This document shows, piece after piece, positions 39,551 to 60,962 of a stretch of 64,000 bases of DNA. A program made the position numbers and the translations under genes. Origin of the DNA: a virus (lineage: Duplodnaviria > Caudoviricetes); IMG/VR virus record IMGVR_UViG_3300028833_000057, positions 32,001 through 96,000 of that record; one strand, written 5' to 3'. Position 1 is the stretch's first letter. Every line of letters starts with the position of its first letter. Under the pieces are notes generated by a model. The model was not told the origin of the DNA, searched no databases, and worked only from the letters and a program-made list of their open reading frames with translations.

Positions 39551-40246
39551 TTACCAGTACCATGCACGTCTGGGTTTGATTTTCTTCTTCTTAGATTTCT
39601 TGTTCCAATTAGCAGTACCACCATAGTAACTACCGTAGTAATTACGACCATAAAGCTGATCATAATTATAACCAGTAGAAGTGTAGCCATAGTCTTTCCA
39701 AGAAACCTTTTCTTTGAATAATTCTTCAGTTGCGCCATTTTCAGCAGCTAAAGCTTTAGCAGCTTTAAGCCGTTGCATAAATGTTGTCGCGTCTAAATTT
39801 TCTGCACACTTTACGTCTGCAGGTATATGTACAAATGAACCATCTGCAATCTTGATAGTAATAACACCATCAGGTGTTTGACCACCATCAAGGAAGATAA
39901 ATGATACATCAAAATCTTTATTAACGTATTCCCAGTCAGTTCCTGAGAATGAACGACAGCCGCTCGGATGCCTATGACATGCAGCATTGTAAATCTGCTT
40001 ATCAGAAGCATACTCATCAAAGGCAATGCTTGCAGCAGTAACATTCTGCTTAGGCATTTCCCAGACTTCTGGAGCAATGTTAGCTGTTAAATTTTCTAAA
40101 TCTATATCTGCACTTAAGAATAAACCATATTCTTGACCATGACTAAAATCGCAAAATGCTTGCATGGTTCCCAGAATATCCATCGGCACTAAAATTGTGC
40201 CACGCTTGAAATACTTGTCGCCAGTTTCTAATGCGTACTTTCCCAT
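39551..40246 (-). CDS. JAB/MPN+ (JAMM) metallo-isopeptidase
   Basis: E (GQEYG) followed by HRHPSGCRSFSGTD, an exact HxH-x7-S-x2-D motif; Tyr/Gly-rich then basic C-terminal tail. Confidence 0.88.
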   Translation of the reverse strand: MGKYALETGDKYFKRGTILVPMDILGTMQAFCDFSHGQEYGLFLSADIDLENLTANIAPEVWEMPKQNVTAASIAFDEYASDKQIYNAACHRHPSGCRSFSGTDWEYVNKDFDVSFIFLDGGQTPDGVITIKIADGSFVHIPADVKCAENLDATTFMQRLKAAKALAAENGATEELFKEKVSWKDYGYTSTGYNYDQLYGRNYYGSYYGGTANWNKKSKKKKIKPRRAWYW

Positions 40247-40261
40247 GAATCTTGTTCCTTT

Positions 40262-40294
40262 AAAAAAGAAAGCCGTAGGGGTTTCCTACGGCTT
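40262..40294 (-). terminator. intrinsic terminator between Ubl and JAB genes
   Basis: AAGCCGTAGG-AAACC-CCTACGGCTT then TCTTTTTT on the minus strand. Confidence 0.8.
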
Positions 40295-40312: not shown

Positions 40313-40813
40313 CTAGGCGTTGAAAATTGCCGGTCTAATGACCAGGGTGTCGCCATCCTGGATTTCAGACGGAGCAATGGACTGACCGTTGCGGTACAAG
40401 TCAGCCTTGTTGATACGGTTAGAACTCATGAGGCGGTGCATTTCAGCCACGACATCTTCGGTGTTGGCACCGGTGATATCGGCTTCAGTCTGAAGCGTTG
40501 CGCCAGAGCTCATGATCTGCACATGAACATGCAGACCCTGAGAAGCGGCAACTGCGCTGGAACGAACAACGGTAGAAGTCGTTGCAGCAACGGCTTCAGC
40601 AGCAGTGTCCTTTTCCTGATAGGTACCAGAGATACCACCCGGACGGGACACGGTCAGAGCATCACGCACTGCCTTCACACGAGTAGCCTTCGTGACGATC
40701 AACGTCCACGAAGCGTTCAACTTTTCTGCAACCTGCTTATTGGTCAGGTGCGAGTTCCAAGTTTCGATAAATTCATCATTATCGAGCTGAGCCAAAGAGG
40801 TCTTCTGAGCCAT
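40313..40813 (-). CDS. ubiquitin-like (beta-grasp) protein with N-terminal HTH-like domain
   Basis: C-terminal LYRNGQSIAPSEIQDGDTLVIRPAIFNA fits the ThiS/MoaD NG..DGD.V.I.P pattern; N-terminal EFIETWNSHLTNKQVAEKLNAS is HTH-like; lies between E1 and JAB. Confidence 0.7.
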   Translation of the reverse strand: MAQKTSLAQLDNDEFIETWNSHLTNKQVAEKLNASWTLIVTKATRVKAVRDALTVSRPGGISGTYQEKDTAAEAVAATTSTVVRSSAVAASQGLHVHVQIMSSGATLQTEADITGANTEDVVAEMHRLMSSNRINKADLYRNGQSIAPSEIQDGDTLVIRPAIFNA

Positions 40814-40848
40814 CTTTTACTTCCTTTAAGTTTGTTAGGTTGTGAGTT

Positions 40849-41847
40849 TTAAGATGCAAATTGTGCTAAGAGTCCTTCGCACTTAGCATCCTTAAGAGAT
40901 TCACCCGTCGGTTGATTCACCGGGATGAATTTACTGCGAAATCCAAATCTATAATAATTCTTATCTATGTTGCCTTCAATTACAGGAGTAGATAATATCT
41001 GCTGTACATCGTTAGCAAATAATGCTTGAGCATAGGGTCCTAGTCTGTGCTCAAATACTATATCATTCTTCACATGAGAATTCACTTTATAATATAAAAG
41101 TGAACTTTCATCCAACTCAATACTTTTATCATCTGTAACAAACTTAAAGGCATCATCAAGCAATCCAGCAAGTCTTTCAACTCGGTCAATAACCATCAGC
41201 TTACCTACTACTAAATTGTTGACGGCTAAGCTAAGTCTAGATTTTGCACAGTGTTTAAGATACCTTTTCCAAATAAGTTCACCCACAGACGTATCAGCAA
41301 GAATAGGTGCTACGTTAATAATATAGTCAAGCACCGAAACATCTGCGAGAATTATGTCTTTAACAAATTGACGAATCTCGCTGAACATTTCCAGACATAC
41401 TCCAAATGCATCTGGATTTTTCCATCCATAATTATCACTTGTAGTAAATAGGACTAATGTTTTTGCAGGATCTGTCTGAATATCTTCAGAAGCAGAGATA
41501 ATAAGCGCCGTTAAAGCTTCCCTATACTTAATGCACAGAGCAGCAAATAATACTTTCTCATATTCTTCGTGTTCTGAAGTAAATGTAACTACTTCATAGT
41601 TTTCACTATCAAGAATACCGTCATCGAACTTTTCCCTATACAAGATAACATTAGGGATAAATTCCAGCATACTCTTAAATACATGAATGAATGAACTTGC
41701 AATCTGTACATATGCGGTCATATTACCTTCAAAGGTATTATTATCGCTATACAGTTGGTTTCTAAGTGTGTTATAAAGAGGAGCAAAGTCGTTTGTTATA
41801 CGACTTGTAAGCTCATCTTCTTGTATTAAAACATTTACTACAGCCAT
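40849..41847 (-). CDS. hypothetical protein in Ubl operon
   Basis: 332 aa; TAATG-coupled to ThiF, GGAGGT RBS. Confidence 0.8.
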   Translation of the reverse strand: MAVVNVLIQEDELTSRITNDFAPLYNTLRNQLYSDNNTFEGNMTAYVQIASSFIHVFKSMLEFIPNVILYREKFDDGILDSENYEVVTFTSEHEEYEKVLFAALCIKYREALTALIISASEDIQTDPAKTLVLFTTSDNYGWKNPDAFGVCLEMFSEIRQFVKDIILADVSVLDYIINVAPILADTSVGELIWKRYLKHCAKSRLSLAVNNLVVGKLMVIDRVERLAGLLDDAFKFVTDDKSIELDESSLLYYKVNSHVKNDIVFEHRLGPYAQALFANDVQQILSTPVIEGNIDKNYYRFGFRSKFIPVNQPTGESLKDAKCEGLLAQFAS

Positions 41848-42560
41848 TATACCTCCACAATAGCTTCATTGATAACTTCTTCGAGGTTAATAATGATCTT
41901 AGTGGTTTTCTTGATCTTTCTACCCTCACCGCAGATCCAAGAAGCAGGGAACTTCTTAAGAATTCCAGCAAGGATTTCGCAGACCATTGCAGGCGGTATA
42001 TAGAAGCTTGGTGTAACTTCATAGCCAGACTGAACATTTACAGAAAGTGTCTTCCATACGCCTTCAGTCGGGTTAAAAGTGATACACATGATATTACCAC
42101 CGTTGTAAGACAGTTTCATATCAATCTGTTCGAACATAACACCTGCATCAAGTACGTCACGACAGTCAATGACAATCGTTTTATTACGCATTCTTGCATC
42201 TGAATATGTACTAGGTGTTTTAAATACCGCCTGTACATTATCAGGTTGTGTTCCTTCATCAGCAGCTTCGTTAAGCGGTTCTGCAATCAATTCATCAAAA
42301 TTACTTACTCTTTCTTTCTTTGTAGAAACACGAGTTTCCATCGTTCTTTTACAAAGTTCTTTAATCACATCTACTTTATACTTGTTAATGGAGCTAATAG
42401 GAACAGGAATTCTGTTCATATTAGAAATCTCCATAATGTCATCATCCATGATATACATGGCTGTATTTCTATCAATAATTTCGTCGAGCATTCCAATGGA
42501 AAGAGGAATATTACCACCAATTCCACCTGCTCCGAGTACTACGATTCGCTTGATATCCAT
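41847..42560 (-). CDS. ThiF/MoeB/E1-family adenylyltransferase
   Basis: VVLGAGGIG (GxGxxG), DDDIMEISNMNR, KYKV and VIDCRD motifs. Confidence 0.92.
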   Translation of the reverse strand: MDIKRIVVLGAGGIGGNIPLSIGMLDEIIDRNTAMYIMDDDIMEISNMNRIPVPISSINKYKVDVIKELCKRTMETRVSTKKERVSNFDELIAEPLNEAADEGTQPDNVQAVFKTPSTYSDARMRNKTIVIDCRDVLDAGVMFEQIDMKLSYNGGNIMCITFNPTEGVWKTLSVNVQSGYEVTPSFYIPPAMVCEILAGILKKFPASWICGEGRKIKKTTKIIINLEEVINEAIVEV

Positions 42561-42564
42561 AGGA

Positions 42565-43401
42565 TCATCCTAAGTAAGAATGTGGTTTAAACATATCTTT
42601 CCTTCCGTAAATACTTCCTTCAGGAGAGAAATGGAATTCATCGCCATTATTATTGTAAAATTTTCTATTTTCAGAATATGCAGATGTCATGTTGACACCT
42701 TCCATCAAGGTAATAATATCTGATATGTGCAACTTGTTAAGGATAGTAGATCCAGCAAGAGTACCCATACAGATCTTTCCACTTTCGTATGCCACATTAG
42801 GATGCTTCAAGATATGATCACCCTGTTCATCCCAGTATGCATATGCTACAAAACTCATATTTTCAAGTTTGCTAGCAGAACCTGTAGAGACACGAATACC
42901 AACACTACGCATAGTGTGTTCTTTATCTTTACGAATTCCTTTAGGGCCGTCAAATATGCAATCAAACAATTGTGCATGATTACGGTCATCTAAAGATGCA
43001 TAGATACGCTTCCAGTGTACAGGATGCCTTAGCGTGAATACCAAGAAATCTGAAGCTTTTCTAATAATCTTAATGACTGGACACTTTGTATCAGAAGCTG
43101 CCCATTCATTATATTCTGCAATATCCGCATCATTAAATGCCCTGATGCCACTGTTATGGCCACCATTATTATTGCTATTTTGAATACGTTCTCGCATAAT
43201 TCTAGGAACAATATGCCCTAGAGCCTTATGCTGCTTTTCAGCCATAGATTCACAAGATATCAGAAATGGCCCACTACTTATAGACACTGATCCATAAATT
43301 TCGTTGCCATCAACTTCATTTCTAAATGTTCCACAATCTTCACGATTATTATTCGTGTCTATTGCAGAACTAAATTGGGATAAAAAGTCTCTAATTTCCA
43401 T
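42565..43401 (-). CDS. prokaryotic E2/UBC-like protein
   Basis: LKHPNVAYESGKICMG matches the UBC active-site HPN..G.IC signature; GAGGAG RBS before MEIRD (43401), overlapping the upstream stop. Confidence 0.75.
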   Translation of the reverse strand: MEIRDFLSQFSSAIDTNNNREDCGTFRNEVDGNEIYGSVSISSGPFLISCESMAEKQHKALGHIVPRIMRERIQNSNNNGGHNSGIRAFNDADIAEYNEWAASDTKCPVIKIIRKASDFLVFTLRHPVHWKRIYASLDDRNHAQLFDCIFDGPKGIRKDKEHTMRSVGIRVSTGSASKLENMSFVAYAYWDEQGDHILKHPNVAYESGKICMGTLAGSTILNKLHISDIITLMEGVNMTSAYSENRKFYNNNGDEFHFSPEGSIYGRKDMFKPHSYLG

Positions 43402-50418: not shown

Positions 50419-51303
50419 TTATCTTTTTTGGTATATTGGCTTATATGGTAAATCTCTTGTCTTAAGTAATTGTAAAACATTATCATAGCTTTTACCAGAT
50501 TCTTTGGACATTTGTTTTACTGTTTTATCTGGACTATACCATGTAAGATCTGAATTACGAACCATGCGTACACGCTTATATGGTAGATTAAGGCGTATTA
50601 ATGCATTTCTAATGCATCCTGCTTTGACACCGCTTTGCTTAGCCATTTCAGGAACAGTTTTATTGGCATCATACCACCAAGATAAATCATCATAATTCAA
50701 TGGATCTTTTATTATACCTTGTAGATTATACTTATGAGCTATCGTCCTTACATGTTTCTCACTTATGCATAACGTTTTAGCGATAATATAAGCAGGCTGA
50801 CCTTGCATCTTTATGATTTTATCAGCTAAATCTTTTGATTTAGCATCTTTAATAGATTGCTTTTTCTTGAAATATTCGTCAGATAATCCACTGGATATTA
50901 TTATTTGCCTTATGCTTTCATGAGATAATCCTGCTTTTTCTGCCATTTGGCGCAGAGATAATGTAGGATCATACCATGATGGCTTAGACAATATTTTATG
51001 ATGAACTTCTTTTTTATATGGCAATTTAAGTTCATTCAAGATTGTATATATCGCAGAAGTATACGTTCCAGATATCCTTGCCATTTGGCGAACAGTAAGC
51101 TTTTTATCATACCAGTCTTTCAAATTGGAATCTGCTATTTGTCTTACCTTTTTATAAGGTAAATTTTTGGTTATTAATGTATTATAGATAACCATAGGCT
51201 TTTTACCAGCAGCCTTAGCCATTTCTCTGACTGTCAACTCTGGTGAATACCATATAGGTATTTTTGATGAAACTCTATGATGAATTCGGTTTAAATCTTT
51301 CAT
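50419..51303 (-). CDS. tandem HTH-repeat protein (about 6 repeats)
   Basis: Repeats of WY...T..EM...SG....I...L....LPYK; AAGGAG RBS. Confidence 0.75.
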   Translation of the reverse strand: MKDLNRIHHRVSSKIPIWYSPELTVREMAKAAGKKPMVIYNTLITKNLPYKKVRQIADSNLKDWYDKKLTVRQMARISGTYTSAIYTILNELKLPYKKEVHHKILSKPSWYDPTLSLRQMAEKAGLSHESIRQIIISSGLSDEYFKKKQSIKDAKSKDLADKIIKMQGQPAYIIAKTLCISEKHVRTIAHKYNLQGIIKDPLNYDDLSWWYDANKTVPEMAKQSGVKAGCIRNALIRLNLPYKRVRMVRNSDLTWYSPDKTVKQMSKESGKSYDNVLQLLKTRDLPYKPIYQKR

Positions 51304-51400
51304 AATGGCTCCTTGTTAAAATTATTAAACCATTATTTAATATAAGCAAATTCATAAGAAATTTACAGAAAAATAAAAGACCATACGAAAGTATGGTCTT

Positions 51401-51898
51401 TTATACTGCTTCTCTATTTTCTAATTCCAAAATATAATCTGGTGGAGGATAGAGTGCTTTATATTGCGGTGATGCAAATATTTCTTGCTCTATATCATTC
51501 TTAACTTCTAAGAATATATGTAAGGCTACATGAATATTCTCAAATTTCTTTTTATATTTATATGGATTATGTTTATATTTGTCAGGTATGAATACATTAT
51601 CTTTTATAAATATTAGTAAGAAAGATTCTTTGATAGAATCAGGTAAAGTCCTGAATTCCAATCTATCTGTAGCCTTATCAAGATCTTCATCATAAGATTT
51701 ATAAAAGAAGTCTTCAGAAGATCTAGCTTCAGAAAATATCTCATATACTCTATCAATGACTATATTATTAAATAATTTCATTTCATATTCATCATCTAGG
51801 TTCCAAGCTCTATAATAGCTCTTTCTAACTTCAGGTAGACCATCGCTCTTAGCCATTTCCAAGAGAATATGCTTCATATAGTCTTCTAACATAAACAC
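51401..51898 (-). CDS. hypothetical protein
   Basis: 165-aa ORF in early cassette. Confidence 0.7.
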   Translation of the reverse strand: MFMLEDYMKHILLEMAKSDGLPEVRKSYYRAWNLDDEYEMKLFNNIVIDRVYEIFSEARSSEDFFYKSYDEDLDKATDRLEFRTLPDSIKESFLLIFIKDNVFIPDKYKHNPYKYKKKFENIHVALHIFLEVKNDIEQEIFASPQYKALYPPPDYILELENREAV

Positions 51899-51919
51899 AC
51901 CTACCTTTATGGAAAAGTA

Positions 51920-52210
51920 CTATTTCCAAAATATTAAATAGTGTATATAATTTTTATCTTCTTCCGGTAAATAAAATTCATATTTACAAATTAATGAAAA
52001 TCCTGCAGCTGATAGTTCTTCAATAAACTTACTTTGTTTTGCCTTAGATACATCTACTTCAATTTGTTTTTCACATCTGCAAATTGCTTGTGTGACTTTA
52101 TGTTCGACATATCTGATAAGTGCATTATATGGTTTATCGGCTGGATCTACAGCACTCGCTTTAAGTTCATCATATATTTTAGTTAAAGGCTTCATGCCAA
52201 AATACCCCAT
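51920..52210 (-). CDS. hypothetical protein
   Basis: 96 aa, overlapping upstream gene end. Confidence 0.65.
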   Translation of the reverse strand: MGYFGMKPLTKIYDELKASAVDPADKPYNALIRYVEHKVTQAICRCEKQIEVDVSKAKQSKFIEELSAAGFSLICKYEFYLPEEDKNYIHYLIFWK

Positions 52211-52545
52211 TTATTGTGTAAAAGTTCGTTCATTCTTAAGCCAAAGATTCTATGTAAATTCTCTATTTTGCCATTAGAAGCATACTTCCAAACCTCATGG
52301 CTTAATTTATCCATTTTATCATGGATCTCTTCGTATTCCATTTTATTTAAAGGCTTAGTATCTAAAATATGACCCCAATGCCTAGCTTGCATTCTAAGTA
52401 ATTCACAGTAGTTTGATCTACTACGTTCAATATATTCTTTAGATGATATTAATTTGGTTTCGAGAGTATACAACATATGTCTACAGTCTAGAACTGTCTC
52501 GCAAGTAGCAAATGCATGCTCTAGTTCTTCATCAGTGAATAACAT
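52192..52545 (-). CDS. hypothetical protein
   Basis: 117 aa; AGGAG RBS; TATATTAAA promoter. Confidence 0.75.
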   Translation of the reverse strand: MLFTDEELEHAFATCETVLDCRHMLYTLETKLISSKEYIERSRSNYCELLRMQARHWGHILDTKPLNKMEYEEIHDKMDKLSHEVWKYASNGKIENLHRIFGLRMNELLHNKWGILA

Positions 52546-52618
52546 AATTGCTCCTAATTTCAGTATTTAATATAAAAAATAAAACGGTATTCCATATGGA
52601 ATACCGTCTTATTTGGTT

Positions 52619-52873
52619 TTAGGATTCGTCTTTTCTTTTAAGTATAACTTCAGACTCATGTGTATCATCTAAGCACTTCTTTTCGCCATCATATCGTGCC
52701 ATTTCAGCAAGATGGAGATTAAGCTCAAAAAGTTTATCATACTGGCGTTTCTGGCTATTTAGTAAGGTTTTATAAATATCGGCCCATCTTTTCCAGTAAA
52801 TTGTACTCATTAGTAATAATGCTGCTGTAAATGCAAGGAAGATAATTATAATAACTAATTGTAAATTATTCAT
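52619..52873 (-). CDS. small membrane-anchored protein
   Basis: N-terminal TM helix followed by coiled coil; start MNNLQ overlaps upstream stop. Confidence 0.7.
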   Translation of the reverse strand: MNNLQLVIIIIFLAFTAALLLMSTIYWKRWADIYKTLLNSQKRQYDKLFELNLHLAEMARYDGEKKCLDDTHESEVILKRKDES

Positions 52874-53381
52874 TTTGTTTTTCTTCTTTTTCAAATTTTT
52901 CTTTTAGTCTAAGGTAAGTCTTATACTCTGTTGCTCTTTTTCTTTCTTCATTCGCTTTATCAAGCATATTTTTATGGCGTTGTCTCTCTGCTTCTACACG
53001 CTCAAGAGTATCAATCCATCGTTTCTTAATTTCTAATAATTCTATATTACTATATTTCGAAAAGCGAGATATCATTAAATACATATCTTCATCGTCAGAA
53101 CTATCTATGTCTATATTATCATCTGCACTGGTGACATGTACTATAAAATAGTCTTCGCCTTTGGTAACTGTTTTCTTTAAGCGCTTAAAAGCACGAATTT
53201 CATCTAATGTAGTACTATCTGCTTGGCTAATACCTAACCCTGCCAACCATTGATCTATTATCATACTATATTTTACAAATATATCATCTGCTGTCATAAT
53301 ATTGGTGATATATTTTATTTTTTCTTCAAGAGCTTTATATGCTTCTTGAAATAATTTTTCTATTTCTGCAAAATCTCGCAT
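52866..53381 (-). CDS. hypothetical protein
   Basis: 171 aa, coupled in operon. Confidence 0.7.
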   Translation of the reverse strand: MRDFAEIEKLFQEAYKALEEKIKYITNIMTADDIFVKYSMIIDQWLAGLGISQADSTTLDEIRAFKRLKKTVTKGEDYFIVHVTSADDNIDIDSSDDEDMYLMISRFSKYSNIELLEIKKRWIDTLERVEAERQRHKNMLDKANEERKRATEYKTYLRLKEKFEKEEKQNE

Positions 53382-53827
53382 AGTAAGTAGTCCGGTTCAG
53401 TTAGTTTTATATATCCATCGTATCTATGGGCATCATCGCAATCACCCTTTGTGATACTCAAAGATGTTATTTCTTTAATACTGCTTAGAATTCTATCCTT
53501 TAAATATTTTGAAATTTGGCGATATTCAAAGTAGAAATTATCAGTACAATTATATGCTTTACTATCTACATCCAATCTAAATCCACCATCAAACGGAAGG
53601 AAGTTTATCCTATTCTCTGAAGCATAAGGCTTAGTTTTAAAATTAATAACAATTCTTATCTTCAGGAATTTTAAGACCCTGTCGCTATGTCCAGCAATGT
53701 AATCTTCTATATCTTTTATACACTTAGGAATTAGTTTGCATGTTTCGTCTACTTCTTTCTTTATCATCTCAAATCTTGTCTTATGCTTTTCTTTATAGTT
53801 TTCTACAAGCCTTTCTTCTATAGTCAT
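53360..53827 (-). CDS. hypothetical protein
   Basis: 155 aa; AGGAG RBS. Confidence 0.75.
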   Translation of the reverse strand: MTIEERLVENYKEKHKTRFEMIKKEVDETCKLIPKCIKDIEDYIAGHSDRVLKFLKIRIVINFKTKPYASENRINFLPFDGGFRLDVDSKAYNCTDNFYFEYRQISKYLKDRILSSIKEITSLSITKGDCDDAHRYDGYIKLTEPDYLLCEILQK

Positions 53828-53838
53828 ACTATCTCCTA

Positions 53839-54267
53839 TTAGTCACTATATAAACATTTTTGTACAACTTTATCGCCAAATCTTATTTCATTATCAAGCG
53901 GTGTTGGTGGTAATTCTATCCAGAATTCTATATCGTCACGTCGTATATCATTATGCTCATCATCAGTTAAATATGTATATACTGCACCATCACCGCCTTC
54001 ATCATTAAGACCAAAGCCTTCAATATGCTCGCCATCTTTATTAATTATAAGGAAATGATGTACATCCCATCCATCGATAGCATCATAGATATCTTCTTCT
54101 TTTTGTCTATGCCAAAACTTTTTAGCTAGCTCTTCTTTAAGTTCTTCTATAGCTTCTTTGACATCTTTATTATCTATTTTGAGATCGTCTACTTTAAATG
54201 TAACTTTATGCTCAGCATAAAATTCTCTAACAGACTTAGCTTCTCTAGTTGTAATTACAGTATGCAT
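53839..54267 (-). CDS. hypothetical protein (MHT-type paralogue)
   Basis: 142 aa; AAGGAGG RBS; promoter directly upstream. Confidence 0.75.
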   Translation of the reverse strand: MHTVITTREAKSVREFYAEHKVTFKVDDLKIDNKDVKEAIEELKEELAKKFWHRQKEEDIYDAIDGWDVHHFLIINKDGEHIEGFGLNDEGGDGAVYTYLTDDEHNDIRRDDIEFWIELPPTPLDNEIRFGDKVVQKCLYSD

Positions 54268-54293
54268 ATATCCTCCTTATGCTTAATTTCTTA

Positions 54294-54328
54294 TTTTAAT
54301 ATAAAAAATAAAAAGCCCCGAAGGGCTT
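54294..54328 (-). repeat. terminator+promoter cassette junction (AAGCCC-TTCG-GGGCTT...TATATTAAA)
   Basis: Same UUCG hairpin recurs near 56126, 60370 and 62011, with a one-mismatch copy near 59001. Confidence 0.8.
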
Positions 54329-54330
54329 GA

Positions 54331-54906
54331 TTATAATACCGCATGACTAAATTTTTTCTTAAAAGGTAAATTCCTATTCCTTAAATATCCATATATACAC
54401 TGTTCGGATAAACCAGACAGATAAGACATTTCGCTTAAATCTCTATCTGGAGAATACCATTTGCCTATTTCTATATCATGATCTTTTAATCTAAAATATT
54501 CTAACTTATGCTTATTTAAAAATGATTTAACATTAACCATAGGTATGCCTGACAAGAGACTCATTTCTTGTATCGTTAAATTCTTATTATAGAATTTAAT
54601 AAATTCATCGAATGAATACCTTTTAAATATATGATAACCTGACGGTCGTTGACATTTTTTATAATGCAATTTACTACTTCGCAATATATGATAAACCACA
54701 TCATAAGATAAACCAGATATAGCAGACATTTCATATATGGTTTTATTTTTATCGTACCATTCAGGTATTGATTTCTTTTTCTTATAGCTTTTACATTTTA
54801 AATTTAGTTTATTAAGATAATATGATATTGCGGTACGACATAATCCAGCTTTTTCAGACATTTCTCTTATAGTAAGCTCTGGATTATACCACTCTGGAAT
54901 ATCCAT
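54331..54906 (-). CDS. tandem HTH-repeat protein (4 repeats)
   Basis: IPEWY repeats; AGGAGGT RBS; colinear paralogue of 60387..60962. Confidence 0.8.
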   Translation of the reverse strand: MDIPEWYNPELTIREMSEKAGLCRTAISYYLNKLNLKCKSYKKKKSIPEWYDKNKTIYEMSAISGLSYDVVYHILRSSKLHYKKCQRPSGYHIFKRYSFDEFIKFYNKNLTIQEMSLLSGIPMVNVKSFLNKHKLEYFRLKDHDIEIGKWYSPDRDLSEMSYLSGLSEQCIYGYLRNRNLPFKKKFSHAVL

Positions 54907-55009
54907 ATAAACCTCCTATGCTAATGATTTACGAATATTCATTATTTAATATATATCGCGGTATATAGAAAATACGAAAAATAAAAAAGCGGCATTCCAG
55001 CCGCTAGAA

Positions 55010-56041
55010 TTATTTTGATCTGGCAAATACATGCTTAAAAAGAACTTCTGGATGGTTGATGTATAACCACCTTTCCATATTTTTATATCCGATACGGCAG
55101 ATCTTGGCGAATTTTTCAATCGTCATATCCTTATTCCAGAAAGATGCAAATTTATCTGGAACTTCAGAAAGATGATCTTTGAGTCTTCGCTTTTTCTTTA
55201 TCCAAAGTTTATCTGGGTGGTACTTTCTGAGCCAGTCTCTTACTGACGTAGGATTTGCCCCAATAAGATCACTATATTCTTTAATAGACATACCATCGTG
55301 CCAATGCTTCTGAAAATTTTCTTCGCTATTTTTATAGTTTCTATTACCATATCTTTTTTCTGGATGATATTTTGACATCCATTTATATACAGATACGACA
55401 CTAGCCCCTATAATATCGGCATATTCTTCATAAGTCATGAGGTCATTCCAGTATTTCTGAAAATTTTCTTCACTATTAATAACATCGGCCTTACCCTTTT
55501 TAAATTTTAAATTATGTCTTCTTAATAGTGCACCAAGAGTACGAAGTTTAATTCTAGATTCCTTTGCCATTTGATCAAGTGTTTTATTTGGATGATACCA
55601 CTCGCCAACCTCAAAAGTATTTTTATCTTTTACTTTCTTAAAAGGTAAATTTCTAGAAGTTAGAATCTTTCTAACTTGGCTATTGCTTAACTCAGATATC
55701 TTAACCATTTCCAAGATAGTACAATCCTTGTTATACCACTCAGGAATATCTTGTAGCGACTCTTGGCGAATATCATCAGCAGTCTTAAATTTTAAATTAA
55801 GATGCTTTAATAACGGATATATAGTGGTAACTCCTATCCCAGTCTCTTGAGACATTTGCGTAACGGTTTTATTGGGATCATATACTCGCTTAATATCTTC
55901 GCAGTGTTTATCTATTAGATGCTTATACTTTAGATTTCTTTTAAATATAAATTGTCTTATATTATGCTCAGAAATTCCAGCGCTTTCTGCCATCTGTCTA
56001 ATGGTTTTATTGGAATCATACCATTCTGGTAAAATGTTCAC
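55010..56041 (-). CDS. tandem HTH-repeat protein (7 repeats)
   Basis: Four PEWY-type plus three FQKYW-type repeats; AAGGAG RBS before GTG at 56041. Confidence 0.8.
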   Translation of the reverse strand: MNILPEWYDSNKTIRQMAESAGISEHNIRQFIFKRNLKYKHLIDKHCEDIKRVYDPNKTVTQMSQETGIGVTTIYPLLKHLNLKFKTADDIRQESLQDIPEWYNKDCTILEMVKISELSNSQVRKILTSRNLPFKKVKDKNTFEVGEWYHPNKTLDQMAKESRIKLRTLGALLRRHNLKFKKGKADVINSEENFQKYWNDLMTYEEYADIIGASVVSVYKWMSKYHPEKRYGNRNYKNSEENFQKHWHDGMSIKEYSDLIGANPTSVRDWLRKYHPDKLWIKKKRRLKDHLSEVPDKFASFWNKDMTIEKFAKICRIGYKNMERWLYINHPEVLFKHVFARSK

Positions 56042-56077
56042 GATTAGGCTCCTTGTTAGATGCAATAACATTATCGC

Positions 56078-56141
56078 ATCATTATTTAATATATGCTGTG
56101 GTACATAGAAAATACGAAAAAATAAAAGCCCCGAAGGGCTT
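56078..56141 (-). repeat. terminator+promoter cassette junction
   Basis: About 45 bp nearly identical (one mismatch) to 56478-56522, followed by the GCCCCGAAGGGC hairpin. Confidence 0.8.
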
Positions 56142-56172
56142 GATATAGAACTAATATTTTATAAAATATCTT

Positions 56173-56442
56173 TTACAGTAGGAAGGATGGCAACGCATTA
56201 GATTCAATCTTATAAGATATTTTTTGTGAATTTGGTGAATAGCATTTCATTACCGTCATCTCTGAGGATGAACTTAGTTTCTTGCATTTTATCTCTATTT
56301 CTATACAACAATTGTTATTGAAACTTACATTAGCTGAAACGATAGATATATCATTCCCAAGATTCTTTACTTCTTCTATAAATGCTTTCTTTTCTTGAAG
56401 AATGTCATTCGTAGCTTTAAGTAAAGGATTATTTTTGTTCAT
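56173..56442 (-). CDS. hypothetical protein
   Basis: 89 aa; AAGGAG RBS; single-gene cassette. Confidence 0.7.
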   Translation of the reverse strand: MNKNNPLLKATNDILQEKKAFIEEVKNLGNDISIVSANVSFNNNCCIEIEIKCKKLSSSSEMTVMKCYSPNSQKISYKIESNALPSFLL

Positions 56443-56607
56443 AATGGCTCCTTTAATAGATACAACGGAATTGTTGTATCATTATTTAATATATGCTGTG
56501 TTACATAGAAAATACGAAAAAAAAGACGTAGGTTTTGAAACCCCCTACGTCCATGCCACTTCCGTTCCTAAGGGCATTCTCTGCTCTGACCCATATTGGA
56601 AACTTGA

Positions 56608-56811
56608 TTACTCAAGCAGAGCAATGGTTTCTTGAGGAAGTCTACAGTTATAAAGCTCATCAGTCTTAAGGATTCCGCAATACTTGTAGAACCACCAGAA
56701 GATCTTTTTATATACATATACTATATGATAAATTCTACGGTCAATTTCATGGCTATCGTCAATATACCACTTATATTTACTGGCTATTGGTTGTATTCTC
56801 GGAATCTTCAT
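56608..56811 (-). CDS. small hypothetical protein
   Basis: 67 aa; AAGGA RBS. Confidence 0.6.
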   Translation of the reverse strand: MKIPRIQPIASKYKWYIDDSHEIDRRIYHIVYVYKKIFWWFYKYCGILKTDELYNCRLPQETIALLE

Positions 56812-56830
56812 TGTAGACTTCCTTAAAGAT

Positions 56831-57406
56831 TTATTCGTCTTTAGTATGTAAGATAAAACTTACTGTATTAAGATACTGTGATACTGTAGGTAAGCCTATA
56901 ATGCTACGGATAATCTGCATGAAGTTACAAATGTCTTTAAGACCTACAACTGCACGGAATCCTTCGTGAGCACTATTTTTGGATTCGAAGATTAACCCAT
57001 GGCAACTATTCTTGCTATTTTCTACGGAAATTCTTAAGTCACCATACTGTAAAGGTGCAGGTTCTTTAATTTCCCTGATATCTATACAATCTAATTGCTT
57101 ACAATAATCAAATAGATTATAGAAGAATGTCTCATTAGAAGCCCAAGGGATTTCCATAAGCATTGCAGGACCTTCTTCTGCATTATTGATAAAGCATAAG
57201 GCATCATATGTATCATCGCCTTTGGCAAATGCCAAAGAACAGTTAGTGGGTACATACCATTCTTTATCTTTATATATCATATCATATGCAAATTGCGTAA
57301 AGTCTACGCCTTTATTGCCATCAGGTTGAACTGATTTAGTATTATAAATATAACCAAGCCTGAAGTTACAGGTCTTGGCTCTTTGCGTGTTTTGTCTTGT
57401 TGTCAT
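56831..57406 (-). CDS. hypothetical protein
   Basis: GAGGT RBS before MTTRQ; ORF track begins at 57427. Confidence 0.65.
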   Translation of the reverse strand: MTTRQNTQRAKTCNFRLGYIYNTKSVQPDGNKGVDFTQFAYDMIYKDKEWYVPTNCSLAFAKGDDTYDALCFINNAEEGPAMLMEIPWASNETFFYNLFDYCKQLDCIDIREIKEPAPLQYGDLRISVENSKNSCHGLIFESKNSAHEGFRAVVGLKDICNFMQIIRSIIGLPTVSQYLNTVSFILHTKDE

Positions 57407-57539
57407 TAATAACCTCATCTGTTTCATTTAAAGTCTTATTACATTTTTCTATAACACTATCTCCAAAAATTATCTTTTCAAATATAATATAGAATTTCTC
57501 TAATAAGTAATCTATAGGATTATAATAACTTCTAGCCAT
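57366..57539 (-). CDS. small hypothetical protein
   Basis: MARSYY start immediately follows the upstream stop. Confidence 0.45.
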   Translation of the reverse strand: MARSYYNPIDYLLEKFYIIFEKIIFGDSVIEKCNKTLNETDEVINDNKTKHAKSQDL

Positions 57540-57540
57540 T

Positions 57541-58329
57541 TTAGAATCCCGTTTGTGCGGATATATAGTGAATCGGTTTACCCTTAGAGGTTCCAACGAT
57601 TTCTACATAGTAGTCTTCATATTCTTGGCTATATTTAATATATGCAAAGCCTGTAAAGTCTTCTATGACAGTACCTTGGGCCTTTGTAGGTCTCTTCTCT
57701 ATATACCATGCGTTTACATCACAGACACAGACCTTAGCTGCATCTGCACAAAATTCTCCAACTGGTTTCTTGGTATCGTAATCAAACAGAGTACAAGACC
57801 AATCACCATATACTGTAGTTTGGAGAATGAAGCATTCTAAGTTTGCATCATATTCGTCTATATCTTCCTTAAGGATATAACATGGATCTGTAATAGCTAT
57901 ATCCTTATGGGAGAATTCTTGATATTTATCAGTTAGACCTTTCTTACGGTCTTCCTGAAGCACTTCATATCCAATCATTTTCCAATAGGTAGCCGCTGCA
58001 TCATAAATATGCCATTTAAGGAATTCTTCTGGATTCCAAGAATAATAGGTAGTATCTTCCTTAGTAACAAGATGTTTGCTATGCCTTAATTCCGTTTGAG
58101 GAACTTTTAAGGCAAGGTTCATACATTCGCTATATCTACGGAATAATTCTACATTTCCCAGCTTAAAATGAATGGGCTTTGCTAAATTCTTAGCTTCTTG
58201 AAATTCTTCTTTCTTTTCAGCATAATAGATATATCTCGGAACTGGCTTCCCTTCTTTCTCTAATCTTTCTCTAATTCTAGATTCTACACAGTTTGCCATA
58301 TCATATCCTATTTGACTGTAATGTGCCAT
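57541..58329 (-). CDS. hypothetical phage protein
   Basis: 262 aa; ITDPCY...YGDWSC...GEFCADAAKVCV motif-like segment; function unknown. Confidence 0.75.
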   Translation of the reverse strand: MAHYSQIGYDMANCVESRIRERLEKEGKPVPRYIYYAEKKEEFQEAKNLAKPIHFKLGNVELFRRYSECMNLALKVPQTELRHSKHLVTKEDTTYYSWNPEEFLKWHIYDAAATYWKMIGYEVLQEDRKKGLTDKYQEFSHKDIAITDPCYILKEDIDEYDANLECFILQTTVYGDWSCTLFDYDTKKPVGEFCADAAKVCVCDVNAWYIEKRPTKAQGTVIEDFTGFAYIKYSQEYEDYYVEIVGTSKGKPIHYISAQTGF

Positions 58330-58955
58330 TTATATGGTTTATAACAACACAGGTTTTCATCTTCTAAGGGTTGCTCTTCTACAACACATTCTTGAATGCC
58401 TTTATTGTTCATAGATAAAATGATAGCATTTATAAATTGCGTTAAGATGATTTTTATGATTGCTTCTTCTTCAATCATAAAATCTGGAACGAAAAACCCT
58501 AGGACTATACTATCCGGCATGTATTCTTCCATTTCCACACATTCATCTTGCTCATTATAAATACTAGGGTATGGTTCTAAGTATAGAACGCTATGAGATC
58601 CATTTATGCTATAATGACAAAGAACGATGTTAAATGAATGGAATTCATTATTATTGGCGATAGCATTAAGCCTGTCTGCTATATACCTAGCTGTATTTTC
58701 CGTCATCATATTCTTTACAAATAAATGCAGAAAACTATCACCTAGGTTTCTATTGAAATTATTAACATCATGGCAATAGTTGAAAATATCTTCATAATTA
58801 ATTTGGTCTGTCATAAGCTTGGACTCTCAAAGTGCTTGCTTTGCAAAGTCATTAAGTACGCATGGATTAATCTGGTCAGCATCGAAAGTGATTCTATATT
58901 CTTCTATAAACTCTTGTGTGCCTTCAATACGTTTAGTACTAATTAAAGTGTGCAT
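58308..58955 (-). pseudogene. MHT-type paralogue interrupted by a single in-frame TGA (or two small genes: 58827-58955 and 58308-58814)
   Basis: ATG at 58955 with GGAG RBS gives MHTLISTK..., in frame with the 168-aa ORF across one TGA at 58827-58829. Confidence 0.5.
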
Positions 58956-59020
58956 AGATTCTCCGTGGATGTATTCGCTTAATTTAATATAAAAAAATAA
59001 AAGCCACGAAGGGCTTGATA

Positions 59021-59803
59021 TTATAATACTGTAAATTTATTCTTAATTCTAGCATACGATAAATTACGTCTGTATAAAAGAGCATATAGATCTGCTAAAC
59101 TTATTCCAGATTCAAAAGACATTTCTTCAGCAGTCTTATTAGGCGAATACCATTCTCCTATGAGAAAATCTTTATATATTTTCCGATATTTAAGATGATG
59201 TCCATTTAAGAAGCTTCTCACTTTTTTCTCTGGAATTTTTGATAAAAGACTGATTTCTTTAACGGTTAAATTTTCATTGTAGTATTGCATAAAGTTATGT
59301 ATATTATATTGCCTTTTATGTAATTTTTTACTTACAGTTGTTTTATATTTGTAAGATAAATTTAATCGCTTTAGAATTACGCTAATACGTGAATAACTCT
59401 TTCCCGCTTTATCTGCCATTTCTTGAATTGTACTATTAGGGTCATACCATTCTGGGATATCTGTCCTAGCTACTGATTTAACAGCTATTTTTTGAATTTT
59501 GCTATTATGGTCATACAATTTCACAATATCTGCCCTAGCTTCGTTGGCATGTTTGTATTTAAGCTTATGTCCAAGTAGATAATTTCTAATTGTACCTTTA
59601 CTTTTACCACTAATAGTTGCCATTCCAGCTATAGTAAAATCTTCATTATACCACTCTGGAATATCTGCCTTAGATCCTCTGACATGTTTGTAATTAAGCT
59701 TATGTTTTAGCAAGTATTTTCTAATCGCATATATGCTCTTACCACCGATAGATGCCATTTCTTTTACAGTATAATCTTCATCGTACCACTCGGGAATATT
59801 CAT
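59021..59803 (-). CDS. tandem HTH-repeat protein (5 repeats plus a partial)
   Basis: IPEWY repeats; AGGAGGT RBS. Confidence 0.8.
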   Translation of the reverse strand: MNIPEWYDEDYTVKEMASIGGKSIYAIRKYLLKHKLNYKHVRGSKADIPEWYNEDFTIAGMATISGKSKGTIRNYLLGHKLKYKHANEARADIVKLYDHNSKIQKIAVKSVARTDIPEWYDPNSTIQEMADKAGKSYSRISVILKRLNLSYKYKTTVSKKLHKRQYNIHNFMQYYNENLTVKEISLLSKIPEKKVRSFLNGHHLKYRKIYKDFLIGEWYSPNKTAEEMSFESGISLADLYALLYRRNLSYARIKNKFTVL

Positions 59804-59910
59804 CTTAAACCTCCTAAATGTTAATGTCTATGAATATCCATTATTTAATATATGAGAAGATAATTTTAAAGTACGAAAAAAAAAAGACCTACATTGTGTA
59901 GGTCTTTTAT

Positions 59911-60285
59911 TTAGCATATAGCATTTATTGCTTTATTCAGGTCATTAATTTTTCCATTATCATCAAGATCCTGATCATTCATTATTGACAAAATTTCATC
60001 CATCTTACGTTGCTTGTAGCCGAGATTCTTATTCTGGAATATTTTTGCCTTTAATTCATAATCCTCCCTTTTTAAAATATTCATACAATTATTTAGAGCG
60101 GACTCCAAATACTTCTCATGATAGATGTCTTCAAGTTTTTGCTTATTTTCAAGCATTTTAGCTTGACAAACAAGCATTTCGTCTTGGATTTTTATTTTCT
60201 TATCCATCGTCTTTACCAGACGCACTGTTGCAATGATTAGAGCACCCATAGCTCCAATACAAATAGGAATGAGATATTCTACCAT
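59911..60285 (-). CDS. membrane-anchored coiled-coil protein
   Basis: AAGGAG RBS before MVEYL; N-terminal TM helix. Confidence 0.7.
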   Translation of the reverse strand: MVEYLIPICIGAMGALIIATVRLVKTMDKKIKIQDEMLVCQAKMLENKQKLEDIYHEKYLESALNNCMNILKREDYELKAKIFQNKNLGYKQRKMDEILSIMNDQDLDDNGKINDLNKAINAIC

Positions 60286-60327
60286 AATGGCTCCTTTGTT
60301 ATAATGTAACTTAATTGTTACATCATG

Positions 60328-60365
60328 ATTTAATATATAGCGTGGGTCATAGAATTTACGAAAAA
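60328..60365 (-). repeat. 38-bp direct repeat (promoter unit), copy 1
   Basis: ATTTAATATATAGCGTGGGTCATAGAATTTACGAAAAA identical at 60999-61036. Confidence 0.9.
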
Positions 60366-60386
60366 TAAAAAGCCCCGAAGGGCTTA

Positions 60387-60962
60387 TTATAGTGAGATAG
60401 CACATTTTTCTATATACTTAAAAGGTAGATTTCTTACATATAATGCATTTAATATTGTTTTACAAGATAAACCAGATATTTCTGACATTTCGTTTACAGT
60501 CCTTTCAGGAGAGTACCACTTGCCAATCTCTAGATCTCGTTTCAATCTAAAATATTCTAGCTTATGCCTATATAAAAATGCGCTTACATTATCTAATGGA
60601 ATGCCTGATAGCAAACTCATCTCTCTTGCTGTCAAATTCTTATTATAGAATTTCATAAATTCTTCAAAAGTATATTTTGCACAGTATTTATGTCCAGGTA
60701 ACTTCTTAGCTTTTTTATAGGGTAATTTATTACGTGATAATACATTATAAATACAATGAAAGGGAAGCCCGGATATTTCAGACATTTCTTTTATGGTTCT
60801 CTTACTATTATACCATTCAGGTATTGGCTGCCTTCTATCTTCTCTTTTACATTTTAAGTGATGCCTATAAATATATCTATATACTCTTTTACGAGATATT
60901 CCAGCCTTTTTAACCATTTCGTTTATGGTACAATTTTCATCGTACCATTCAGGAAGATCCAT
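60387..60962 (-). CDS. tandem HTH-repeat protein (4 repeats)
   Basis: LPEWY/IPEWY/FMKFY/IGKWY repeats; AAGGAGGT RBS. Confidence 0.8.
   Translation of the reverse strand: MDLPEWYDENCTINEMVKKAGISRKRVYRYIYRHHLKCKREDRRQPIPEWYNSKRTIKEMSEISGLPFHCIYNVLSRNKLPYKKAKKLPGHKYCAKYTFEEFMKFYNKNLTAREMSLLSGIPLDNVSAFLYRHKLEYFRLKRDLEIGKWYSPERTVNEMSEISGLSCKTILNALYVRNLPFKYIEKCAISL

Follow-up and report, generated by a model that had tools for sequence, protein, structure and literature searches.

The window analysed here, a stretch of 64,000 nucleotides, covers positions 32001-96000 of a virus record that is 267,826 bp long (IMG/VR record IMGVR_UViG_3300028833_000057). On its minus strand, at 40313-40813, it carries a gene for a protein of 166 amino acids (aa) with the layout of a ubiquitin-like protein (Ubl), in which a helix-turn-helix (HTH)-like N-terminal domain, a low-complexity linker and a C-terminal beta-grasp domain follow one another, and which is encoded close to genes for a ThiF-type activating enzyme (E1), a conjugating enzyme (E2)-like protein and a JAB/JAMM peptidase. 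Since the same genome encodes fragments of the β and β′ subunits of a multisubunit RNA polymerase (RNAP), the virus belongs to the jumbo phages that possess an RNA polymerase of their own. The Ubl gene and the parts of its product are located as follows:

40313 to 40813, minus strand: Ubl gene with HTH-linker-beta-grasp layout, 166 aa, stop codon TAG at 40313-40315
40820 to 40827, minus strand: strong Shine-Dalgarno sequence, AAAGGAAG, separated from the ATG by 6 nt, read from the sequence
40658 to 40792, minus strand: helices of the N-terminal domain (N-domain), residues 8-52, a predicted HTH-like core of three or four helices (AlphaFold2 (AF2) model and weak HTH or winged HTH neighbours)
40613 to 40657, minus strand: conserved hairpin motif LTVSRPGGISGTYQE, residues 53-67 (alignments A2/A3 and hairpin of the AF2 model)
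40538 to 40612, minus strand: low-complexity Ala/Thr/Ser linker, residues 68-92 (predicted local distance difference test score, pLDDT, <50 at 69-91)
40331 to 40537, minus strand: ubiquitin/SUMO-like beta-grasp domain (C-domain), residues 93-161 (Foldseek, VIA-align and profile A4)
40316 to 40330, minus strand: tail A-I-F-N-A, residues 162-166, with Ala166 as putative activated end (conservation of RPAIFNA)

The three-part architecture had been proposed in a preliminary description of this DNA and is reproduced by the AF2 model, which returned helices, a disordered linker and a beta-grasp fold. The same description was exact in stating that the protein ends in -IFNA with no Gly nearby, as F-N-A is directly followed by TAG and the Gly nearest to the C-terminus, G154, is located inside the fold. 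The open reading frame (ORF) is a real gene under purifying selection. Its close homologues (n = 10), which are metagenomic, are 60-82% identical, with changes at the third codon position dominating; compared with the 73%-identical copy at locus L002, the differences by codon position amount to 45/28/94, and synonymous changes account for 57 of the 106 codons that differ. A plus-strand ORF of 138 aa at 40436..40852 is unsupported as a gene and was dismissed as an antisense by-product, which is open because the Ubl gene is locally GC-rich. Likewise discarded was a lengthening of the tail by readthrough or an alternative genetic code, as homologues share the end with ordinary stop codons and the neighbouring ORFs are intact under translation table 11.

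The C-terminal domain and its end

Built on an alignment of the close family, the AF2 model of the full Ubl (mean pLDDT 73.8) displays a beta-beta-alpha-beta-beta-beta topology at residues 94-161 (pLDDT 73-80). Among PDB structures, the top 50 Foldseek matches of the C-domain are nearly all of the ubiquitin, SUMO or NEDD8 type (E-values from 2.4e-3; template modelling (TM) scores by target 0.26-0.58), and an exhaustive VIA-align search retrieved almost exclusively ubiquitin-like or other beta-grasp folds (Z 5.9-7.9, root-mean-square deviation mostly 2.4-3.5 Å, mostly 60-78 residues aligned); as these Z values are not above the background stated for the tool, the weight rests on the near uniformity of the list. 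A sequence test independent of the model is provided by profile A4, made from 35 family C-domains, which aligns over its full length to SUMO-2/3, with E-values of about 0.008-0.01 for single SUMO and 4e-7 for a di-SUMO chain, and which places the family tail 'rdqlsaA' on the SUMO tail 'QQQTGG'. The full-length alignment identifies the C-domain as a ubiquitin/SUMO-like beta-grasp domain, the last residues of which are positionally homologous to the di-glycine. The label 'ThiS-like' given to this domain at the outset was right as to its beta-grasp and Ubl nature and loose as to the family, as the closest sequence match is SUMO-2/3 and not ThiS/MoaD, for which the Pfam models gave no match to the Ubl at E <= 1. 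With SUMO-2/3, the best sequence-level match, the phage domain shares the beta-grasp fold over the full domain and an aligned tail, whereas the identity is only about 10-15%, the Gly-Gly of SUMO is Asn-Ala in the phage Ubl, and in place of the short disordered N-terminal extension of SUMO there is a folded HTH-like domain.

The tail AIFNA is floppy in the AF2 model (pLDDT <50 at residues 164-166). RPAIFNA is shared by 10 of the 11 close-clade sequences, five of which extend it by two unconserved residues (AV, AK, MV, AV and KV). The exception, P0011 on a 1.1-kb Logan contig, ends in ...DGGDRKSVV without RPAIFNA, probably owing to a frameshift, truncation or assembly error rather than as a natural variant. 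An exhaustive profile search expanded the family to 40 clusters, about 30 of which have the HTH-linker-beta-grasp layout at 160-232 aa. When the tails were tallied with cluster members added (59 sequences from 38 clusters), the final two alignment columns were occupied by AA in 23, AG in 14, NA in 10, GA in 9, GG in 2 and KA in 1, the final aligned residue thus being Ala or Gly without exception; nothing follows it in 20 of the 59 sequences, and 1-13 unconserved residues do in the remainder. Thirty-four sequences are free of Gly at the last two positions. The Ubl itself does not have the tail ending in Gly, usually Gly-Gly, native or exposed by a protease, that classically defines such proteins, and the relaxed rule that the last residue be Gly or Ala describes all 59. 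The C-termini, which could have varied freely, therefore do not do so in any of the 38 clusters, and the combination of an invariant Ala or Gly with variable extensions of 0-13 residues is the hallmark of a reactive end which in some proteins carries a cap and is trimmed.

Precedents exist for both an activated and a capping alanine. The CD-NTases of type II CBASS (cyclic oligonucleotide-based antiphage signalling system) end in Gly or Ala, and with Ala, too, the Cap2 thioester forms and conjugation proceeds (PMC10097602), a precedent that had been accurately quoted beforehand. In Ubl BilA of E. aridi, on the other hand, the native terminal Ala is a cap which blocks reactivity, and its removal by the deubiquitinase (DUB) exposes Gly (PMC10557695), which leaves the reactive residue of the phage Ubl uncertain by one position. 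The penultimate position (-2) is the less likely one, since some clades have Asn or Lys there, in contrast to the invariably small residue at position -1, and since one third of the sequences naturally end at position -1. Penultimate Asn is confined to one clade, with mostly Ala or Gly and once Lys in the others. The remark that there is no Gly for the JAB peptidase to expose is true for the protein of this phage and does not extend to the sister phages, where JAB probably processes proteins with 1-13 extra residues. An end at which Ala and Gly are interchangeable, and which is Gly-free in most members, would extend the 'small residue is enough' rule of CBASS to a true beta-grasp modifier.

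The operon around the Ubl gene

The genes that accompany the Ubl gene, and the terminator that separates it from the JAB gene, are:

39551 to 40246, minus strand: JAB/JAMM peptidase, 231 aa (E39...H91-x-H93...S101-x-x-D104 invariant in alignment A7)
40260 to 40294, minus strand: intrinsic terminator between the Ubl and JAB genes (10-bp stem with 6 GC pairs, T-run)
40849 to 41847, minus strand: 332-aa protein between the E1 and Ubl genes (position conserved; sequence detectable only in L002)
41847 to 42560, minus strand: ThiF-type E1, 237 aa (Pfam ThiF, E = 1.7e-6; alignment A5)
42565 to 43401, minus strand: E2-like protein, about 278 aa from an internal Met (H-P-N-V...G-K-I-C-M-G, alignment A6)

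The catalytic motifs are intact. Invariant in E1 are GxGGxG, D39/D41, S-N-x-N-R and D-x-R-D, and in E2 the Asn of H-P/A-N and a G-x-(I/V)-C-(L/M)-G motif in which Gly, Cys and Gly are fixed. The nearest solved sequences of E1 are UBA3, MccB (E 1.8e-7), UBA5, PaaA and Cap2 (E 3.6e-5), ahead of ThiF and MoeB; it lacks CxxC pairs, and its sole positionally recurrent Cys lies in GGNIMC, in four of five sequences. For E2 and JAB, no useful match beyond weak ones of unknown function was obtained from Pfam, PHROGs or PDB sequences, and their assignment thus rests on motifs and context. Pfam and PHROGs searches with the 332-, 343- and 209-aa proteins gave equally weak unknown-function matches. A prediction of the complex of two E1 copies with the Ubl C-domain scored 0.00, which counts neither as support nor as contrary evidence.

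Synteny was followed over seven loci with DNA, including, besides the window, L002, L005/L006, L007/L008, L009, L010 and L011, across which the identity of the Ubl decreases from 73% to about 22%. Homologues of E1 and JAB are encoded within a few genes of the Ubl in all seven, and E2 was found in five (window, L002, L005, L007 and L010); in L009 and L011, where its motif is weaker or absent, the thresholds applied returned no E2. The JAB gene adjoins the Ubl gene in six loci and is located two genes downstream in L010. The order of the compact operons is [~209 aa][E2][E1][~300-336 aa][Ubl][JAB]; a dCMP deaminase gene usually comes next, and beside the operon is a divergent block which includes the S77 prohead protease. 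The relatives sit among phage genes such as those for prohead protease S77, NrdD and dCMP deaminase. The operon also occurs in an expanded form at L010, where the E1 adenylation domain forms the C-terminal portion (residues 430-628) of a 660-aa protein and a 444-aa protein contains the E2 motif; the E1 proteins of the other distant relatives have 208-262 aa. As it is conserved down to about 22% Ubl identity, the gene set is probably part of the core biology of these jumbo phages and not a recent capture.

Distant members of the family (L010:2103-7900, L011:3910-5274 and the P0047 contig) adjoin genes for multisubunit RNAP subunits (Rpb1_2, Rpb2_6). As to targets, neighbouring RNAP or head-maturation genes give at most a hint. 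A gene of 295-336 aa is always found between E1 and Ubl in compact operons; its product evolves fast, being undetectable by phmmer outside the closest relative, and is a candidate adaptor, E3 or substrate. The C-terminus of JAB (39551-39720) consists of a low-complexity stretch rich in Tyr, Gly and Asn followed by KKSKKKKIKPRR, and a separate 314-aa gene at L010:9622-10566, between Ubl and JAB, has a similar YYGGGG and Lys/Pro-rich tail. The Tyr/Gly/Asn-rich end of JAB may be a condensate-forming or nucleic acid-binding appendage.

Within the operon, no strong minus-strand terminator exists besides the one behind the Ubl gene, and a hairpin with a T-run follows the Ubl also at L002:8502-8576, L005:9541-9601, L007:9502-9575 and L009:8734-8806, that is in all five loci examined. 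With a GC content of 0.52 overall and of 0.56 at third codon positions (GC3), the Ubl gene stands apart from its neighbours (0.33-0.39 and 0.26-0.33, respectively), and in each of the five loci it has the highest GC3 of the operon. Since GC3 is enriched in the Ubl gene and a terminator follows, production of the tag is expected to exceed that of JAB, and more tag than eraser appears, from these sequence features, to be a conserved trait.

Our reading of this locus, to which we assign a probability of about 60%, is that the Ubl gene encodes the modifier of a phage-encoded conjugation system with an E1-E2-JAB cycle, in which the HTH module would act as a DNA address or handle. The Ala166 carboxylate at the end of the flexible AIFNA tail would be adenylated by the neighbouring ThiF-type E1, the acyl group passed from E1 to the Cys of the HPN...C motif of E2 and subsequently to target amines. 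As the Ubl of this phage ends at the putative reactive residue, no processing would be needed, while the extensions of 1-13 residues in sister phages would be trimmed by the JAB peptidase of the operon, which would also reverse conjugation. The HTH-like domain on its flexible linker would be the cargo or address label, most likely as a nucleic acid binder, so that either the tag would be delivered to proteins that sit on DNA, or tagged proteins would gain a DNA-binding handle and be tethered to DNA through the tag.

The composition of the operon also bears on whether conjugation takes place at all. E1 might act on the tail without conjugation, by a thiocarboxylate of the ThiS/MoaD type or a C-terminal modification of the MccB type, for which the penultimate Asn could be chemically relevant. 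The minimal E1 without CxxC pairs, the position of MccB among its closest solved relatives and the early 'ThiS-like' impression agree with such a role, although the -2 Asn is limited to one clade, the C-domain fits SUMO better than ThiS/MoaD, and no rhodanese or cysteine desulfurase gene was seen near the operon in the window or in the loci of the relatives. MccB adenylates an Asn-ending peptide, which counts for a modification of its type and is curious beside the -NA tail. E2 with HPN...C and JAB are, moreover, conserved together with the Ubl, whereas sulfur-carrier systems are without E2 (PMC10557695), and we consider this explanation highly improbable.

Very unlikely as well is that the protein is not a modifier, but an abundant DNA-binding or regulatory protein with the beta-grasp as an interaction or sensor module, a protein that might itself be acted on by the neighbouring enzymes as their substrate or might regulate them. 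The commonest layout of regulators pairs an HTH with a small domain for ligand binding or interaction, beta-grasp domains often serve as adaptors (PMC1949818), and the gene has a terminator of its own and a codon bias typical of abundant proteins; yet a non-reactive end would not retain an invariant Ala or Gly in front of 0-13 unconserved residues, the tail aligns on the GG of SUMO, and the profile search found no standalone copy of either Ubl domain linked to these operons.

Known systems and distribution

The closest known counterpart is type II Bil (BilABCD; Chambers et al., PMC10557695; Gong et al., PMC11601603), which possesses the same four-part set of Ubl, E2, JAB/JAMM DUB and E1. Like those of the phage system, Bil Ubls with one beta-grasp domain can have N-terminal domains and C-terminal extensions that the DUB removes. 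In contrast, the operon described here is encoded by jumbo phages and not in bacterial antiphage defence islands; its E1 is a single adenylation domain of 237 aa, whereas BilD combines an inactive and an active adenylation domain with a mobile CYS domain (PMC10557695); the tail ends on Ala or is Gly-free (-NA, -AA) where Bil has Gly; and there are additional conserved genes of 209, ~332 and ~343 aa. An HTH-like N-domain is, furthermore, absent from the N/G-rich, coiled-coil and DUF1508 types listed for bacterial Ubls (PMC11601603). PDB sequence searches with profiles of the Ubl C-domain, E1, E2 and JAB gave no match to the solved Bil proteins. The phage operon is therefore a Bil-like Ubl system which stands outside Bil by E1 architecture, host and the missing Gly terminus.

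Type II CBASS Cap2/Cap3 (Jenson et al., PMC10097602) shares with the phage system a fixed terminal Gly or Ala behind a variable penultimate residue and a JAB peptidase, Cap3, that reverses conjugation, but the protein conjugated there is a CD-NTase enzyme and here a beta-grasp protein, and E1 and E2 are fused in Cap2 of a bacterial immune operon and encoded by separate genes in the phage. From ThiS/MoaD, which have a GG terminus and pair with an E1 but lack E2 and DUB, the phage Ubl differs by the missing GG and by the accompanying E2 motif and JAB. An earlier case of a phage ubiquitin-like domain with a JAB peptidase is TAPI of lambda and T1 with the JAB domain of TAPK (Iyer, Burroughs and Aravind 2006, PMC1779556); in TAPI, however, a conserved C-terminal Gly of the domain is followed by a Gly-rich linker and another domain, and the genes belong to tail-assembly clusters without E1 or E2 (PMC1779556). 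While phage Ubls were previously known only as this E1/E2-less domain, the present operon comprises a seemingly complete set of E1, motif-identified E2, Ubl and JAB. Ubl conjugation in prokaryotes has so far been described as an antiphage weapon of bacteria, as in Bil, type II CBASS and probably Bub.

Megablast with the 38-44 kb region and tblastn with the Ubl, P0021 and E1 gave no match among 50,697 GenBank phage records, a set from which records close to the window may be omitted, and of 29 pattern matches obtained from IMG/VR with a pattern derived from alignment A1 none was confirmed. The Ubl family appears to be confined to uncultured material, and to jumbo phages where the context is known. 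In the full-text collection searched, which contains few subscription journals, no description of a phage E1-E2-Ubl-JAB operon or HTH-Ubl fusion was found, and a comparative review of 224 jumbo-phage genomes makes no mention of such a system (PMC7824862). If the system is confirmed, the sequence rules for Ubl searches would widen, because the family escapes any search in which a C-terminal GG is demanded, and a tractable system would be at hand for asking why a bacterial virus uses ubiquitin-like tagging.

The N-terminal domain and its possible function

The N-domain is modelled by AF2 as helices 12-19, 25-32, 36-45 and 47-52 and, behind them, a small hairpin (55-56/66-67), with helix 25-32, the turn NAS and helix 36-45 as the putative helix-turn-helix; a separate model of residues 1-68, based on 35 sequences, left the helices unchanged. 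Its structural neighbours in the PDB, namely MarR, SmtB/ArsR, IscR, CodY, the DNA-binding domain of the Sf6 small terminase, Tn3 resolvase and Myb/SANT, are almost all HTH or winged HTH, at weak scores (Foldseek E at least 0.14, VIA Z at most 4.4), the nearest Atlas models belong to HTH_3, HTH_24, HTH_11 and winged HTH clusters (TM 0.48-0.63), and the language-model neighbours (Atlas feature), the scores of which are leads only, are all HTH families. The family profile matches proteins with tandem HTH_23, HTH_7, GerE or sigma-70-r4 repeats, single repeats scoring 8-20 bits and the best of them 12-20 bits over profile positions 8-48, which correspond to helix 1 to helix 3. Compared with PDB sequences, the N-domain profile found no HTH and produced spurious matches to designed WD40 proteins, via 'KLWN', and to transaldolase. 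In most members the net charge of the domain is +1 to +6, and W36 and K42 of the third helix are conserved in >90%. With five weak lines of sequence and model evidence in agreement, an HTH fold is probable, and nucleic acid binding is slightly favoured, the positive net charge in most members being the sole indirect sign of DNA binding.

Directly behind the helices follows the motif L-T-[VLAM]-x-R-x-G-G-x-x-G-T (LTVSRPGGISGT in this phage), the most conserved element of the Ubl, in which R57 alone is invariant across 35 clusters, with conservation in >90% for G60 and G63. The motif resembles the LRLRGG tail of ubiquitin, but is internal, 100 residues before the true C-terminus. It could be a ubiquitin tail-like internal recognition site for JAB or E1, or even a second tail of the ubiquitin type, at which a cut by JAB could yield two activatable pieces from one precursor, an HTH ending in -RPGG besides a beta-grasp ending in -NA. 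As two clusters retain the Arg of the motif and lose the Gly-Gly, a structural or DNA-contact role is favoured, and on the basis of the model the hairpin could be the DNA-contacting wing of a winged helix.

These same data allow the Ubl to be a conjugated modifier the N-domain of which is a protein-protein module that docks E1, E2, the 332-aa protein or the target, or self-associates. Bacterial Ubls do carry varied N-domains that do not bind DNA, such as coiled-coil, N/G-rich and DUF1508 (PMC11601603), the HTH evidence is weak line by line, the hairpin LTxxRxGGxxGT and not the 'recognition helix' is most conserved, and some structural neighbours are the winged helices of the UFM1 E3 ligase UFL1/DDRGK1, which bind proteins and the ribosome. 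We nevertheless regard docking as unlikely, given that the N-domain is net basic in most members, that its neighbours in sequence, feature and structure searches are all DNA-binding HTH classes and that the two third-helix residues are so widely conserved.

On the reading as a conjugated tag with a DNA address, each conjugation would transfer not just a small fold, but a whole putative nucleic acid-binding module. In its most specific form, the Ubl of these RNAP-carrying jumbo phages would be 'DNA-addressed', with the HTH bringing the tag to the phage or host chromosome and E2 coupling the tag via its Gly-free Ala end to DNA-bound proteins, a form that we advance tentatively and consider doubtful. 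SUMO acts mainly on chromatin-bound proteins, which offers a conceptual parallel. If true, a DNA-addressed tag would be a phage analogue of chromatin SUMOylation that remodels or disarms nucleoid or transcription proteins.

Several points weigh against the conjugation reading or parts of it. Each line of the HTH evidence is weak taken alone: curated HTH models gave no significant match, the best for residues 1-70 being PF13412 HTH_24 (E = 0.15; 12.1 bits at a cut-off of 21.9), and the repeat-summed E-values of the tandem-repeat matches have to be discounted because a WD40-repeat match of the PDB search was spurious. The linker, which in relatives is 22-96 aa long with a net charge of -19 to +11, from acidic to basic, is therefore a mere spacer and not a conserved DNA-binding element. 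By analogy with BilA, Ala166 could be a cap, the removal of which leaves an Asn terminus, and we know of no precedent for a penultimate Asn in a Ubl tail. As judged by sequence, E1 is a minimal 237-aa adenylation domain with one candidate catalytic Cys (four of five sequences), and E2 is identified by its motif only. The distant member P0017 has neighbours of different sizes. While the architecture, the conservation of the tail, the synteny and the intact catalytic motifs are shown directly, adenylation at the alanine, conjugation, DNA binding and the targets are inferred. The observation itself is solid, and the functional reading is plausible and directly testable.

A histone H1-like role of the linker as a basic DNA-binding element was dropped in view of the same range of charges. 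The likeness noted beforehand between the N-domain and repeats in the 50-61 kb region held only loosely: the hidden Markov model of the N-domain gives no further match in the genome of the phage at E <= 1, but hhalign does align 32 columns in the proposed register (P = 5.7e-4, at a probability of only 29%). The repeats themselves, of about 45 aa in tandem with the consensus IPEWYD..kTI.EMa..sGiS, make up five proteins encoded at 50419-60962 of the window and are HTH by Pfam (HTH_28, HTH_17, HTH_58 and sigma-70 r4), though only via repeat-summed scores.

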